From: Nitrospirota bacterium
GTDB taxonomy: Bacteria; Nitrospirota; UBA9217
Assembly: GCA_963818475.1 (NCBI GenBank)
Contig: CAWFSF010000006.1
Span: forward strand, 992,001-1,056,000
Length of the DNA: 64,000 nt
Direction of reading: 5' to 3'
Shown: in pieces, positions 2,551 through 38,317 of the stretch
Numbering within the stretch: the stretch's first letter is position 1
Layout: each line of letters starts with the position of its first letter
The notes under the pieces: model-generated
What the model saw: the letters and a program-made list of their open reading frames with translations, nothing else
Told to the model about the DNA's origin: nothing
Databases searched by the model: none
Translations under genes and position numbers: made by a program

Positions 2551-4063
2551 TTATTGAACGGTAAGTCCGCTGGGCGGGGAGGGAACAGTGTCGCTCGCAG
2601 GCGAGCCGTTTTCCGGGCTTAAGACAATCAGCGAGACGGCGTTAGGTTGAAGAGTGAATGTTCGAGTTACGCTGGAGGCCGCCGGCAGAACAGTGTCTTC
2701 GACTGTCTCGAGATCTGATTTGGCCGCGTCGTAACTGACATTACTATGGCTCGCATCCACCAGATACCGCTTTAACCTGATCGTTTTGCCAACGAACTCC
2801 GCAGGCAAGTTCGAAACCGCCAAATCGGTGGAGTAGCTCGCAGTTCCGGTATTTTGGTAGTTCCACACCAGCACTGTCACTAAGTTGGGTCCTTTCGACG
2901 CTAAGGCGCGGACGCCTATGCCATTGACATCCATCTGCCCGGAAGCGCTGATCCGAGTGCCAGCCATCATGCTGAGCATCTTAAAGCTGTTGTATTGTGG
3001 AAAAACCTGAGATCCGCCGTCCTGAATGATGCCTTGTACTGTGGGCGCAGGCCGCCTGACCCTAAAATAGAAGATTTCGCTCAACCCGGCGTCAGGCATG
3101 AAGTAGCTCATCGGTCCGATCATGCCAGCAGCGCGAGTGACCTGCCAAGGTTCAGCCTCTTGAACAGTGTCGAACACGCTGACCGCGTTCCATTCAGTAA
3201 GCATCAATTCGGTGTTGGAAAATCCAGCTGCGCTCAACCAGGAACGAACGGTACTTGCTTTGCTGCGAAGTTTCGCTGGCAAAGCTGCACTATATTCATG
3301 CCAGTCCACTATATCAAGTGGAAGATTATTAGTTTTGCAATAATTGATAAATCCTTGGATCCATGTGGAATTAAGACCTGCGGCAGTCGGCCCACCAACC
3401 TTGGCGGAATTGTCGGCGGCTTTCACACCCTGAGCGGTATATTGATATAGTTTTTCATATCCGCCTAGACCGGCAGGATACAACGTATTGGGATGGTCAG
3501 GCTCATTCCAGACGAGGAAGTATTTAATTCCGTACCCTTTTACGACATTCAGATGGGTGACGGTGTCGCTTATCAACTTTTGCCATTTCACATAATCCTT
3601 GGGGGGGGGTAAGCATATACGGATATGCACTATCCCATGCATTCTGACCGTATGTTGTGTCTGCGAGCCACTGGGGCATGAAAGCAAGCACTACGACAGG
3701 CTCCGCGCCGGTTGCTTTGACGTTTTCTATATTGCCGTCGAGCAAGGTCCAATTATAGATGCCCTCCGCTGTGGAAACCACGTGGAGCATGGCATCCAAT
3801 CTTACCAGTCTGGTTCGGACAGACGCGAGCCTGCTCTGCTCATTACTGGTAAATCTGTCGAAATTTCCTTTTCTGGCCTGACCAAAATTAATAAAGGTCT
3901 TTAGGGATCCGCTGGGCTGAGTCACATCGACAGATATGGATGCCGCCTCGGAACTTTTCGCCAAGCCGAGAAGGCCGAAGAAGATGAGCGCGAAAAAAAA
4001 TACTCCGGTGAAATAGAGGCTGTTTTTATTTGCAAAAAATTGTTTTATTTTATTATTATACAT
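2551..4063 (-). CDS. Secreted GH39-family glycoside hydrolase (frameshift at the G9 run, 3601-3609)
   Basis: Signal peptide, WNEPD acid/base, KVGGP and LTEWN nucleophile motifs; ORFs 3524-4063 and 2551-3687 join at the homopolymer. Confidence 0.82.
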
Positions 4064-34542: not shown

Positions 34543-35616
34543 CTAGTCCCAGACCTTTATTTCGTTATAGAGGGTGTCCCGTTCAACCGGTATACGGCCG
34601 GCCTGCCGGATCAAGTACACGATATCCGTCATCGTCATGCTCCCGTCAGTGGTCCCGCCCGCGGCCTTGGTGATGCGTTCTTCAACTACGGTCCCGTCAA
34701 GATCATCAACGCCGAAGTTCAGCGATACCTGGGCGATCTTTTCCCCGAGCATGACCCAATACGCCTTGATATGGTCGAAATTGTCGAGCATCAGGCGTGA
34801 AATGGAGAGTGTCTTGAGGTCGTCGAAACCCGTGGTATAGGCGGACTTCTTGATCTCCGTGTTTTGTGAATGGAAACTGAGGGGAATGAATGCCTGAAAT
34901 CCGTTGGTTTGGTCCTGCAGTTCTCGCAGTCTGATCAAGTGATCGATACGATGTTCTGAGGTCTCAATATGGCCGTAGAGCATGGTGGCATTTGATTTTA
35001 AGCCGATCCGGTGCGCAGCCTCGATCACTTCAAGCCAACGGGTGCCGCTTATTTTTTCCGCACATAACGTATTTCTGACAGTGCTGTCGAATATTTCGGC
35101 GCCGCCGCCCGGCAGAGACCCGAGCCCGGCATCGCGAAGCTTAAGGAGCGTCTCCTGAAGACTCATCCCGGATAATTTTACCAGGTAGTCGATCTCAACT
35201 GCGGTAAAGGCTTTGATATGGATCAGGGGAAATTCGGCTTTGAGCGCTCGCAGCATGTCCAGGTACCATGTAAAGGGCAGGTCTGGGTGAAGTCCCGAAA
35301 CGATATGCAGTTCACGCACGTTCTTTTCAGCTCCACGTGCCTTGCACAGGATATCGTCTATGCTCATCTCGTACGCGCCCGGTTCGCCTTTACTCCGGCT
35401 GAATGCGCAGAATTTACATCGGTTAACGCAGATATTGGTGGGGTTAATATGCATGTTCTGGACGAAGAAGACCTTGTTGCCGTTCTTTCTTTGCGCAACA
35501 TGGCTTGCCATGCGTCCCAGCGTCAGCAGATCGGCGGATCTGAAGAGCTCAATACCGTCTTCGCGCGTTAGACGGGTGTTGGAAAAGACTTTTTCTTTGA
35601 TCGTATCAAGACTCAT
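34543..35616 (-). CDS. mqnE: Aminofutalosine synthase (radical SAM)
   Basis: HINPTN.C, HIKAFTAVE, SNATMLYGHIE, HIKAYW, DDLDGTV.EE. Confidence 0.93.
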   Translation of the reverse strand: MSLDTIKEKVFSNTRLTREDGIELFRSADLLTLGRMASHVAQRKNGNKVFFVQNMHINPTNICVNRCKFCAFSRSKGEPGAYEMSIDDILCKARGAEKNVRELHIVSGLHPDLPFTWYLDMLRALKAEFPLIHIKAFTAVEIDYLVKLSGMSLQETLLKLRDAGLGSLPGGGAEIFDSTVRNTLCAEKISGTRWLEVIEAAHRIGLKSNATMLYGHIETSEHRIDHLIRLRELQDQTNGFQAFIPLSFHSQNTEIKKSAYTTGFDDLKTLSISRLMLDNFDHIKAYWVMLGEKIAQVSLNFGVDDLDGTVVEERITKAAGGTTDGSMTMTDIVYLIRQAGRIPVERDTLYNEIKVWD

Positions 35617-35690
35617 GGTTCGTTCATTTACCCGGCGGCAGGGGAGACCGCAGTTTTTCAGTTTAAGGTAGCAGGGGGCATATGATTTTG

Positions 35691-36953
35691 TTACGTGCGT
35701 ATGTTGCTTTCGTATATGATCCTGCCGTTCACCATGCTCATGATACAGGATTTTGTCTCCCTGAGCAAGTCATAATGGAAGTCACCGGAACTCCTGTTCG
35801 GTAATGAGACCGCAATGATATCAGCTTTCCTGCCAGGAGTAAGGGACCCGACATTGTCAGCCATGCCAAGGGCCTTTGCTCCGCCTCTGGTCGCCAGTTC
35901 CATGACGGTACGCGCCTGAATCCCGTCTCTCTTGTGGGACTGGAAGGCATACCTCATTTCGTCCCAGAGATTAAGGCTCGGAGAACTGGCCAGGCTGTCT
36001 GTCCCGAGACCGACCGTTATTCCGGCAGCGAGAAATTTATGCAGCGGCATTCTGCCGACGCCTGTTTCACGATTGCTTCTGGGGCAGTGTGCAACGGGGG
36101 TTCCCGATTTCCCGATGAGTTTTATATCACGGTCTGATGCATGAACTGCATGTACTGCCAGAAAGGAGGGGCCGAGCAGGCCCAGGTTGTAGAGATATTC
36201 AAACGGAGACGCCCCTGACGGCGACCAGGAGCGGTCCCAGCCTGCAGCCTTGTAGAGCTTGTCAAACCCGCTTTTTCGTCCCTGAAGCAGGTTTAGCTCA
36301 TCGCGAGACTCGGCTACATGCATGCAAAGAGGCAGGTTTTTCATTCTGGCAACCTTACCGAGATGGAGCAGGACCGCTGTTGAGACCGTATGAGGAGCAT
36401 GGGGTGAGAGTCCCATTCTTATGCAGGCAGTCTCGCGAGAAAGGACATGGTTTATACGGGACAAAAGACCGGGTACGCTGCCACGGACACCCGGAGCAAC
36501 GTTTTGGCTCATATCAATGAACTCATGAAAGATCCGCGCCCTCATGCGCGATCGTTTCAGGATGCCGGGGCTCGCTCCCTGTGTGCATATTTCGCCGACA
36601 CAGGTGGTGCCGCTTTTGATGATGGCCCCGACGTTTTTAGATGCCGTTGTGTAATAGTCTCGATCATGGAGCGATCTTTTTGCTTTGATCAGGTTCAATA
36701 CCCAATCAGGGAAAGCCCTGGCCTGTATAGATTCGAGCAAAGGCGGCAGTTCAAGGTGGGTATGAACATTGATCAGGCCGGGCATAAGAACAGCATTGGG
36801 TAACGCACGGACGGAGTGACCTGAGTATCTCTTTAATAGACGTTTGGCAGGTCCGACAGCGATGATCGTACCGCGGTTTATGACGACAGCACCATTAACC
36901 AGCGGTGCCGTGCCACGCTGCATAGTCAGGATTATTTGAGCAGTTAATATCAT
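35691..36953 (-). CDS. Metal-dependent amidohydrolase (probable aminofutalosine or 5'-deoxyadenosine deaminase)
   Basis: PGLIN.HTHLE, SPHAP, H.AES..E, HCPRSN, LGTDS; co-oriented upstream of mqnE-mqnC. Confidence 0.8.
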   Translation of the reverse strand: MILTAQIILTMQRGTAPLVNGAVVINRGTIIAVGPAKRLLKRYSGHSVRALPNAVLMPGLINVHTHLELPPLLESIQARAFPDWVLNLIKAKRSLHDRDYYTTASKNVGAIIKSGTTCVGEICTQGASPGILKRSRMRARIFHEFIDMSQNVAPGVRGSVPGLLSRINHVLSRETACIRMGLSPHAPHTVSTAVLLHLGKVARMKNLPLCMHVAESRDELNLLQGRKSGFDKLYKAAGWDRSWSPSGASPFEYLYNLGLLGPSFLAVHAVHASDRDIKLIGKSGTPVAHCPRSNRETGVGRMPLHKFLAAGITVGLGTDSLASSPSLNLWDEMRYAFQSHKRDGIQARTVMELATRGGAKALGMADNVGSLTPGRKADIIAVSLPNRSSGDFHYDLLRETKSCIMSMVNGRIIYESNIRT

Positions 36954-37049
36954 TGAGAAGTGGTCAGTTCAGCGGCAGTTACCACAATCCAGCAGACCTG
37001 AAAGAGGGCAACGCCTGCCGATTACAACAAAATAAGCATTTTTTTTACG

Positions 37050-37077
37050 ATTTGACATAATATACAGAGTTAGGGAT
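37050..37077 (-). other. Half-degenerate dif copy (att junction)
   Basis: ATTTGACATAA-TATACA followed by non-canonical GAGTTAGGGAT in place of the XerC arm. Confidence 0.8.
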
Positions 37078-37101
37078 TCCGGAAAAGTAGGGGATCTTTT
37101 A

Positions 37102-37155
37102 CCGTGGGAGACCGGCAGGGGGTCCCGCTTGCGGGTTCCTGCCGGTCTTCCACGG
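37102..37155. repeat. Long GC-rich hairpin
   Basis: CCGTGGGAGACCGGCAGG...CCCGC-TT-GCGGG...CCTGCCGGTCTTCCACGG. Confidence 0.85.
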
Positions 37156-37196
37156 ATGGGTATTTCATGTTTTTGGTTTTTGGTTTATGGTTTTGT

Positions 37197-37248
37197 CTCT
37201 AGGTACACTTGTTCCGGGTAGTAACACCGGAACAAACTGCACCTAGAG
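37197..37248. other. Putative rolling-circle double-strand origin / nick-site hairpin
   Basis: CTCTAGGT..TTGTTCCGG-GTAGTAACA-CCGGAACAA..ACCTAGAG; resembles the Rep_trans (pT181-type) CCGG..T/AA..CCGG dso. Confidence 0.6.
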
Positions 37249-37265
37249 TGCAGTGCCATCAATAA

Positions 37266-37278
37266 AATCAATGACTTA
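37266..37278 (+). promoter_or_regulatory. IHF-binding consensus site
   Basis: AATCAATGACTTA matches WATCAANNNNTTR. Confidence 0.55.
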
Positions 37279-37305
37279 TGCGCTAGTTTTGGGAATTGAA
37301 TTATT

Positions 37306-37611
37306 TCAATTACTTGGCTTTACTTTTTTTTGGTTTCGTTTTTGGTTTTCGACGGCTTTTAGCATCATTTCGTAGTACGGTTTTATGTGATCTGCTGCTG
37401 TCGTGTAGTTGGCGATCACGAGGGCTTTTTCGGGCTCTTCGTTGATCAGCTCAGCGAGTCTGATTGCTACTGCATCATTGCAGGTTGTTTCCTGATGGTA
37501 AACCCTTAGAAGGTAGTTGCCCTGGGCTCCGATCAGCTGCGCTAATTTGGTTGTTGTTTTGATGCCTAGCTTTTTCTTTGCGTCATCGATGTATCGAGTC
37601 ATTGTTATCAT
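37306..37611 (-). CDS. HTH repressor-like protein resembling filamentous-phage repressors (DUF3693-like)
   Basis: YIDDAKKKLGI....LAQLIG...AIRLAELINEEPEKAL pattern; AAGGAG RBS; family assignment is by eye. Confidence 0.65.
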   Translation of the reverse strand: MITMTRYIDDAKKKLGIKTTTKLAQLIGAQGNYLLRVYHQETTCNDAVAIRLAELINEEPEKALVIANYTTAADHIKPYYEMMLKAVENQKRNQKKVKPSN

Positions 37612-37852
37612 ACTTTCTCCTTTTTTGTCAAATTTATTTATCAAAAAATTGGTGGCCTTTTTTTGATTTTATAGTTTACACTCTTAATCGTTGCTTACAG
37701 CTGCCGGGTTTTGCTGCTTCTGCCAGCCGGATTTATCGCTTCCCCGGCTGGCCTTTTTGTCTCTGCTTCTTTGTAGCTTTGCCGAAGTATGACTTGTCAT
37801 ACTTGTATTACGTTCGAGGAACGGTAGCGGGACTTACGCTTGCTTTTTCCTT

Positions 37853-38245
37853 TCACCCTAACTGCGCCGTGGTAGTAGCCGCTTGGTAAAATTTCCGACC
37901 GCTCGAAACATAAATTTTTGCGTCACTATAGCCAATTCCAAAATCTTGCTTGATGCACTGCAGGGCCTTTGCCTTGTCGCCGGCGCATCCGTTGCCCAGG
38001 TGTTCCTGGAAGCGGGAGAATACCTCGAGCGATTTTCGCTTGAAGTTTTCCTGTCTTCGCTTTACGTCTACCTGGTCTCTTGCTGCTTCAACGGCTTTTG
38101 CAAAGACGATCTTTGTACGTATGCCTCTGGAGAGGTCAAGAAGGGTGTTTAAAGCGAAGATAAGGTCTTTGATTATCTCTGGGTCGGCTTGAAGTGTGAT
38201 TTTGCCGTTGTCGCTGCCTAGCGTGAAGATATCGGGGTATGACAT
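37853..38245 (-). CDS. Hypothetical protein of the dif-integrated element
   Basis: 130-aa ORF with GGAGG RBS; no family recognised. Confidence 0.65.
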   Translation of the reverse strand: MSYPDIFTLGSDNGKITLQADPEIIKDLIFALNTLLDLSRGIRTKIVFAKAVEAARDQVDVKRRQENFKRKSLEVFSRFQEHLGNGCAGDKAKALQCIKQDFGIGYSDAKIYVSSGRKFYQAATTTAQLG

Positions 38246-38289
38246 TTTGGGCCTCCAAAGGTTCCGGCCCTGTAACACCTGTCATTACG

Positions 38290-38317
38290 ATTTGACATAA
38301 TATACATTATCAGACAA
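38290..38317 (-). other. dif: Chromosomal dif site (XerC/XerD)
   Basis: Minus strand TTGTCTGATAA-TGTATA-TTATGTCAAAT versus E. coli GGTGCGCATAA-TGTATA-TTATGTTAAAT. Confidence 0.9.

Follow-up and report, generated by a model that had tools for sequence, protein, structure and literature searches.

A 1,240-bp segment with the features of a small mobile element lies at the chromosomal dif site in the 64-kb stretch of Nitrospirota DNA analysed here (the window, G000:C6:992001-1056000). The source genome, G000, is a 4.66-Mb assembly in 7 contigs and is 91% complete; positions below are those of the whole stretch. Between two copies of a direct repeat the segment holds a gene for a helix-turn-helix (HTH) regulator and a gene for a 130-aa protein, and its right end runs into a complete dif. 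Its features are, from left to right:

37045-37066, plus strand: left repeat copy (attL), with the arm ATTTGACATAA at 37050-37060 and the centre TATACA at 37061-37066.
37067-37077, plus strand: element-borne pseudo-XerC arm GAGTTAGGGAT, with 4 of 11 positions as in the host XerC arm.
37085-37096, plus strand: motif AAGTAGGGGATC, common to a decayed copy in another genome, G076.
37102-37155, no strand assigned: hairpin 1, with 18-bp arms that are 94% complementary, followed by a T-rich tract on the plus strand.
37197-37248, no strand assigned: hairpin 2, a long imperfect stem conserved neither in a metagenomic copy (L083) nor in G076.
37306-37611, minus strand: gene for a 101-aa HTH regulator (phrog_638 / phrog_4441), repressor-like and terminal at the attL end.
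37853-38245, minus strand: signature gene beside dif, encoding a 130-aa protein from a rare family that is a candidate accessory or activation factor for Xer.
38285-38306, plus strand: right repeat copy, an exact repeat whose XerD arm is probably element-borne.
38290-38317, plus strand: regenerated canonical 28-bp dif, ATTTGACATAA TATACA TTATCAGACAA, in which a 6-bp centre separates two 11-bp arms that are partly palindromic.

The repeat, TTACGATTTGACATAATATACA, is exact over 22 nt, is composed of TTACG, ATTTGACATAA and TATACA, and recurs at a spacing of 1240 bp, as a preliminary description of this DNA had reported. Its 17-nt core (XerD arm plus 6-bp centre) occurs three times in the whole assembly: in the two repeat copies and in one spacer of a clustered regularly interspaced short palindromic repeat (CRISPR) array. 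The same description held that the right copy completes a canonical dif and that the left copy lacks a XerC arm. Both points are borne out: the continuation TTATCAGACAA on the right gives a 28-bp site conserved in the family, and the continuation GAGTTAGGGAT on the left agrees with the XerC arm at only the 4 positions given above. The retained arm, when reverse-complemented, is one base off the Vibrio cholerae XerD-arm motif quoted in a preprint (bioRxiv 10.64898/2026.06.12.731946), and it is named the XerD arm because of this likeness. The A variant of the arm, ATTTAACATAA, is carried exactly by several family members.

The family-wide distribution of the site and its position on the chromosome identify it. 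With at most one mismatch, the 17-mer is present in 51 of 64 family genomes and in exactly one copy in 46 of these 51; the reversed pattern, used as a control, gave 0-1 matches per genome. Five genomes with 17-mer matches were left out when the sites were read individually. Of 49 sites read in 45 other genomes, 45 run on into the canonical TTATC(A/G)G(A/T)C..., and the family consensus is ATTTGACATAA TATACA TTATCAGACAW. On contig C6 (2.35 Mb) the cumulative GC skew climbs to one maximum, at 1,030,000, and declines beyond it; dif is at 1,030,290, and the profile at the scale of the window agrees with the contig-wide one. Based on near single-copy conservation in the family, the canonical continuation and the GC-skew peak, the 28-bp site is the chromosomal dif.

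In two members of the same genus this site is empty. The left-flank match in G003 (query 7-1255, 88% identity) stops at C8:983105, the right-flank match (query 2588-3722, 81% identity) begins at 983035, and a complete dif lies between the contiguous flanks; G005 has the same layout on contig C127. An empty dif with contiguous flanks in relatives, which the preliminary description had proposed to look for, is therefore present, and the 1.24-kb segment is an insertion. It is also rare. Among 5.8 billion proteins, the 130-aa protein has 3 cluster matches and the HTH protein 2, and the gene for the former is present in 3 of the 64 family genomes and in 4 of 401 sampled genomes of the phylum. These data bear on the simplest alternative, namely that the locus is not mobile at all and consists of a lineage-specific pair of chromosomal regulators beside a locally duplicated dif half-site. 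Both proteins do resemble DNA-binding regulators, and movement was not observed directly. The empty sites nearly refute this explanation, however, and the sparse distribution of the gene family, the membership of the HTH protein in a phage family (phrog_638) and the existence of an independent copy with a different left flank and a different pseudo-arm all argue against it, so that we consider it very improbable.

That independent copy, L083, is a 2,260-bp metagenome contig from the Joint Genome Institute (JGI) on which the whole arrangement is present with a repeat spacing of 1,123 bp. It reads, in order, attL (ATTTAACATAATATACA followed by GTGTCCGGATT), the HTH gene, the homologue of the 130-aa protein, CG, ATTTGACATAATATACA, TTATCAGACAT, and the same outer-membrane-like flank gene as in the window. 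Compared with the window copy, the 130-aa protein is 52% identical, the HTH protein 40% and the flanking host protein 46%. The two XerD arms of L083 differ by one base (A on the left, G on the right), which fits a separate origin of each; if attP recombined with dif, the left arm should be the host's and the right arm the element's, and the difference is unlike what a local duplication would predict. A further pair of homologues, P0002 (57% identical to the 130-aa protein) and P0005 (69% identical to the HTH protein and likewise 101 aa), is each reported on one 10,171-bp contig, presumably the same one.

Two other genera carry remnants. In G076 a decayed copy lies between lipA and dif, with two stops in the 130-aa gene, no HTH gene and the left half-site lost; it keeps a hairpin and the motif AAGTAGGGGATC, which among all fetched loci is found exactly only in G000 and G076, with one further match (1 mismatch) inside a coding region of locus L033. 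In G058 a broken homologue of the 130-aa gene lies about 0.5 kb from dif. The 130-aa gene thus adjoins dif in G000, L083, G076 and G058, and the dinucleotide CG precedes the element-borne XerD arm in 4 of these 4 copies versus 3 of 43 ordinary chromosomal difs. Independent occurrences, which had been named beforehand as the test that would tell such an element from the stump of a prophage, are provided by L083 and by the decayed copies.

Other sequences occupy dif as well. Four of the 49 sites read are non-canonical (one each in G002, G023, G049 and G076). The 17-mer runs on into TTGCCCCGTTT and a phrog_638 HTH gene in G002; in G023 it runs on into GTCTGTAAAAT and likewise a phrog_638 HTH gene, soon after which the contig ends. 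G049 has two contigs with a common left flank that diverge right after the dif centre, one continuing into canonical dif and chromosome and the other into TTATGTCCAGT..., which suggests a mixed population. More generally, contigs of fragmented metagenome-assembled genomes often end about 150 nt or less from the dif 17-mer (five sites: G049:C131:106-122, G049:C161:28-44, G074:C92:62, G075:C117:110 and G077:C45:141), a pattern suggesting that coexisting occupied and empty variants cause assemblies to break there. The non-canonical site of the single-contig genome G076 is a second, degenerate one at C1:3159951-3159967 (L063), 345 kb from the true dif and in the opposite orientation, with one mismatch in the centre and an altered XerC arm. 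In a third family, G039:C54:17946-18090 (L068:1940-2100) contains two full dif-like sites (…AGTTGACATAATATCTATTATCAGACAATT) in direct orientation 117 bp apart; TTAAAAG precedes both, a 10-nt masked stretch lies beside one, and the pair may reflect either a tandem duplication at dif or a very small insert there.

The gene content of the window element agrees with the preliminary description, which listed an HTH open reading frame (ORF) and one ORF of unknown kind, with no Rep, integrase, Zot or coat gene. There are only two conserved ORFs in the element, the phrog_638 regulator and the 130-aa ORF, neither matching a recombinase family, and all 11 Phage_integrase matches in the genome lie outside it. 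The same description concluded that only cis-acting signals and a repressor remain; this is not supported, as the 130-aa ORF is a conserved signature gene beside dif. Its start codon lies 45 bp from the XerD arm in G000, and GGAGG is found upstream.

We characterized this protein by sequence and by predicted structure. It matches no Pfam family. A HMMER scan of 1.84 billion representatives returned 51 proteins at E <= 1e-3, of which about 45 are small (75-200 aa); large repeat proteins that match only the first 40 residues were left out of the family. Members in alignment A3 (35 sequences) have a common H-L-N-N-G-C-x-G-D-K and G-R-R motif, and an additional HTH at the C-terminus is found in a few (Mor in 2; HTH_23, HTH_7 or ISL3-HTH in 1 each). 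With A3 as input, AlphaFold2 gave a confident model, with a predicted local distance difference test (pLDDT) score of 95.5, in which a beta-hairpin is followed by two long antiparallel helices and then by two more, the latter forming a small C-terminal helical domain. Foldseek found no match to this model at E <= 0.001 in PDB or BFVD, the best being partial, homeodomain-like three-helix matches; a sequence profile search of PDB gave nothing below E 0.16, and in the protein Atlas there were only matches below 0.9, which carry no family. Relatives were found neither in genome contigs (searched with alignment A1) nor in IMG/VR viral contigs (A1 and A4). DUF3653 (PF12375) does not match the window protein at E <= 1 or any of the 35 family members at E <= 0.01. 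It does match gp a of phage PM2 (E 2.5e-4), and an hhalign comparison of the 130-aa family profile with PM2 gp a gave a probability of 0.2%. Prediction of a complex of XerD with the 130-aa protein, run without controls, gave no answer (score 0.00) and is no evidence either way.

The HTH gene is preceded by a Shine-Dalgarno-like AAGGAG. Its 101-aa product matches phrog_638 (E 7.6e-8) and phrog_4441 (E 1.4e-5), and phrog_638 is matched also in L083 (E 6.4e-11), G023 (4.3e-17) and G002 (2.5e-10), so that the attL-side gene is a phrog_638 regulator wherever it could be read (G000, L083, G023 and G002). A 20-nt inverted repeat (80% complementary; 37252-37271 and 37663-37682) brackets the gene in the window. 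Each arm stands beside a match to the integration host factor (IHF) consensus (37266 and 37639), and the arms are possible operator or bending sites for the regulator.

The two strong hairpins noted in the preliminary description are real: folded as DNA, 37067-37305 has an energy of -52.7 kcal/mol (z = -8.07), and none of 200 shuffles was as stable. Hairpin 1 with its T-rich tract looks like a terminator. In L083 (z -1.57) and G076 (z -1.46) the corresponding region shows no significant structure, and since the hairpins are strong only in G000 they are not a family-wide cis signal. Short matches to the hairpin region at C2:494465 and C6:2227966, both in coding sequence, were dismissed as chance. 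Of the IHF consensus proposed earlier, the two matches inside the element stand, but the signal is weak: the 64-kb window contains 5 matches, a total reached by 11 of 100 shuffles.

These results bear on the origin first proposed for the segment, a satellite or defective-interfering derivative of a filamentous phage. In that case a helper inovirus would package it by way of the hairpins. Its small size, the great stability of the two hairpins and two IHF-consensus matches would suit such an element, and TLCphi and RS1 offer precedents (PMC6744903). Against it, the hairpin region lacks significant structure in L083 and G076, no relative was found in IMG/VR viral contigs, and the only complete relative, described below, carries a PM2-type coat, a packaging ATPase and an SLT lysin, which is not an inovirus set. 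Nor did we find the Rep_trans or Zot helper that had been suggested: neither domain has a match in the element's own 91%-complete genome, a search for which the family offered no positive control. What stands of the earlier proposal is a small mobile element without a recombinase at dif, as the empty sites and independent copies show; the inovirus derivation is not supported, given that no helper was found, the unconserved hairpins and the PM2-like nature of the full-length relative, and we judge it improbable.

The relative in question is found in G207, a genome of another Nitrospirota family (C77:1-10531; L090). The contig opens with a 175-aa homologue of the 130-aa protein, 69 nt from the contig end, and about 10 kb further on, just before proS, lies a 141-aa phrog_638 HTH gene (E 4.9e-17). 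The interior encodes a 376-aa protein that weakly matches the N- and C-terminal domains of PM2 coat protein P2 (P2_N and P2_C) and also matches phrog_28223 (E 6e-28). Its other products are an ATPase of the packaging type (phrog_2666, E 5e-22), an SLT lysin, regulators and small membrane proteins. The segment is a PM2-like double jelly-roll prophage of about 10 kb, and the two genes of the window element are its terminal genes. It also holds a VapC-like pair, and a short masked run of N lies at the proS junction.

This relationship raises the question of whether the window element is a dead stump, that is, a full-length PM2-like prophage integrated at dif that lost its interior by deletion and left its two terminal genes and junctions behind, immobile. 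The terminal position of both homologues in the G207 prophage is what this explanation would lead one to expect, as are the clear decay of the G076 and G058 copies, the lack of conservation of the hairpins, and the absence of any replication, packaging or structural gene from the element and of any helper from the assembly. However, both ORFs are intact and identically ordered in G000 and L083, over 1,240 and 1,123 bp, at only 40-52% protein identity, and a third pair of homologues is apparently carried by one contig (P0002/P0005). Independent deletions would not be expected to yield the same product repeatedly with both frames preserved. In addition, the repeat is perfect over its 22 bp, the site is empty in two congeners, and a G207-type capsid gene was detected neither in the element's own genome nor among the 64 family genomes (again with no positive control within the family). 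We therefore consider a stump unlikely, if less so than an inovirus satellite.

Taken together, the data make it likely that the segment is a minimal, non-autonomous integrative mobile element that exploits Xer (IMEX): a stand-alone lysogeny module of 1,240 bp comprising a phrog_638 HTH regulator, a 130-aa accessory protein and a one-armed mimic of dif. It would be non-autonomous, since it has no replication or transfer gene, and we infer an evolutionary tie to small PM2-like prophages that carry both genes at their ends. In the proposed mechanism, a circular form with the attP CG-ATTTGACATAA-TATACA-GAGTTAGGGAT would have recombined with dif through the host XerC and XerD. Because the XerD arm is perfect and the 6-bp centre identical in both partners, homology allows both strand exchanges, and the same features in an attP without a XerC arm predict an exchange initiated by XerD. 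XerC might be recruited to attP cooperatively or by the 130-aa protein, which from its position could act like a Xer activation factor. The host would keep a working dif after integration, and the crippled hybrid attL should, by analogy with the Legionella element LME-1, be a poor substrate for FtsK-driven resolution, reducing excision. The probable role of the HTH protein is to repress the module; it may in addition confer immunity against related phages. On the host side XerD is intact (293 aa; relatives are named XerD by their sources). A XerC-like gene upstream of an hslV-like gene (G000:C5, about 26.8-27.7 kb; L077:1183-2071) reads as overlapping frames of 253 and 111 aa, which may be an assembly or sequencing error or a real frameshift in the dimer-resolution recombinase.

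Several observations weigh against this interpretation. If the interruption of xerC in the assembly is real, the element would be locked in place. Two of the four dif-linked copies are decayed. The 130-aa protein has neither a DUF3653 domain nor a fold like that of known proteins, and it is its position beside dif that points to a Xer-related role. No circular form, excision junction or extra coverage was seen in the one public read run available as short contigs (X1; share 0.08, Logan contigs), in which the element is uncovered: three short contigs map to the stretch, none spans the element or any joint, and one of 151 nt over 36907-37058 ends inside the XerD arm, showing neither an empty site nor a circle. 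No dif of this family was found at the G207 prophage: the 27-nt family dif pattern (<=3 mismatches) is absent from G207 and G036, and the prophage has one end at the contig start while the other abuts the masked stretch. Finally, divergence is alike for the element proteins (40-52%) and the flanking gene (46%), and because of this similarity old vertical inheritance with repeated precise loss is possible. Horizontal spread and old residence with repeated precise, Xer-type loss both imply site-specific chemistry.

An IMEX of this form has partial counterparts elsewhere. The satellite phage TLCphi spans several kb and encodes a replication protein; the window element is smaller and has no such protein, and its accessory protein is unrelated in sequence to that of TLCphi. 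The two are nonetheless alike in being non-autonomous IMEXs with an attP short of one proper arm, an accessory gene beside attP and a centre identical to dif. The arm that is degenerate in TLCphi is that of XerD, with deviations at 8 of 11 positions for which XafT compensates (PMC6744903, PMC9226527), whereas in the window element it is that of XerC (7 of 11). XafT activates XerD and helps to assemble the synapse (PMC9226527, PMC6744903). A second Xer activation factor (Xaf), XafV (ORF136) of VGJphi, is likewise small and encoded beside attP, as is the 130-aa protein, and it shows that Xafs are of more than one kind, but it was found through its fold likeness to XafT (bioRxiv 10.64898/2026.06.12.731946); for the 130-aa model Foldseek gave no match in PDB or BFVD at the threshold above.

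The closest parallel in layout comes from Vibrio, where Ma and Zhang describe modules with a repressor (RstR/P16) and XafT/P15 as terminal genes and a dif-like attP that is either full length or a 17-bp single arm (PMC12715192). The window element resembles these in its lack of an integrase, its insertion at dif, its terminal pair of repressor and attP-adjacent factor, the possibility of a one-armed 17-bp attP and the regeneration of dif at one junction, and the PM2-like prophage of G207 carries a homologous pair at its ends. It differs in that the module stands alone, with no phage body between the genes, in its host phylum, and in the lack of DUF3653 in the attP-adjacent protein. The preliminary description had regarded known Xer-exploiting elements as larger; this is true of those that it named, but the module itself had already been described in these Vibrio phages.

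Elements outside this group share other traits. LME-1 extends over tens of kb and was reportedly first noticed as a CRISPR target, in earlier work by the group that described its integration. Its 22-bp att is a partial dif mimic, and integration leaves one intact dif and one modified site, with reduced excision (PMC9765430). The window element has both the 22-bp partial mimic and the pair of sites in common with it; unlike the window element, LME-1 relies on a single recombinase, XerL, and its modified site is only 3 substitutions off dif. Modules of Acinetobacter plasmids with XerC/D-like sites are also very small, lack a recombinase and are thought to be moved by host XerCD, but they are plasmid-borne rather than at a chromosomal dif, carry cargo such as resistance genes and, in the sources consulted, have no pair of repressor and accessory factor (PMC7399989, PMC5790767). 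Experiments on Xer-exploiting elements have dealt with Proteobacteria, and in the sources consulted IMEXs and Xaf proteins are reported from gamma- and beta-proteobacteria. Among the papers listed by our literature search none joins Nitrospir* with IMEX, in agreement with the earlier statement that no described IMEX was known in the lineage.

A second line of evidence for elements at dif is the CRISPR spacer mentioned above. A type I-E array outside the window (C6:1998384-2002831) has 74 repeats and 73 spacers, with cas genes at C6:2002998-2008720; Cas2 (PF09707, E 4e-38) lies about 170 bp from the high-coordinate end of the array and Cse1 (PF09481, E 8e-94) beyond it, both on the minus strand. 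Because of this placement the array is read on the minus strand, and spacer 24 (C6:1999812-1999843) is the 50th from the leader. It consists of CG, the XerD arm, TATACA and CAAGCGTCCAATG. For the final 13 nt there is no match in the genome or among the fetched loci, the exact pattern is absent from IMG/VR viral contigs, and an overlapping pattern is absent from JGI metagenome contigs. As a half-dif followed by 13 foreign nt, the spacer derives from DNA in which a half-dif was joined to foreign sequence, and it probably records another dif-targeting element. The source would be either the attP of that element or an attL left in this lineage, whose left flank likewise ends in ACG. In type I-E systems the end of the CRISPR RNA (crRNA) next to the leader-side repeat is the seed end. 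In the crRNA sense of spacer 24, it is the foreign part that adjoins this repeat; there both the host dif and the resident element mismatch, and they should escape targeting. The other 72 spacers have no match to the element or to any fetched locus beyond words of chance length. Four other spacers have near-matches of 21-24 nt elsewhere in the genome, at C6:913882, C5:594673, C1:187872 and C1:316919.

The left flank of the element (window 34543-36953) holds two genes, both on the minus strand and both of an ordinary chromosomal kind. One encodes an amidohydrolase (Amidohydro_1, E 1e-47); the other, next to it, is a 357-aa ORF that on visual inspection resembles an enzyme of the radical-SAM type from the futalosine menaquinone pathway.

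The IMEX as a kind of element and the layout of its module were thus already known. New are the phylum, the bare two-gene form, an unrelated protein at the position of a Xaf, an attP without a XerC arm, and a CRISPR spacer across a half-dif junction. A more far-reaching interpretation, which we put forward tentatively and hold to be possible rather than probable, is that the 130-aa protein represents a third, structurally unrelated class of Xer activation or synapsis factor that enables XerCD to recombine dif with an attP without a XerC arm, in mirror image to XafT and TLCphi. Together with the repressor and the 17-bp half-dif it would then form the smallest self-sufficient integration cassette known (about 1.1-1.2 kb), circulating in Nitrospirota both by itself and, as their terminal module, on small non-tailed phages, and common enough for an attP-type junction to have been sampled by CRISPR.

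For the Nitrospirota, an environmental phylum that is hard to culture, these results give a dif site and a family of IMEXs, and they show an integration module stripped to two genes in about 1.2 kb. The spacer across the junction of half-dif and foreign sequence is a rare direct record of immunity against an attachment site. If the 130-aa protein does aid Xer recombination, FtsK-independent activation would have been solved more than once by phages and their relatives, with unrelated folds; an attP without a XerC arm would be workable; and the module would provide a compact integration cassette, free of a recombinase, for use in bacteria without genetic tools.

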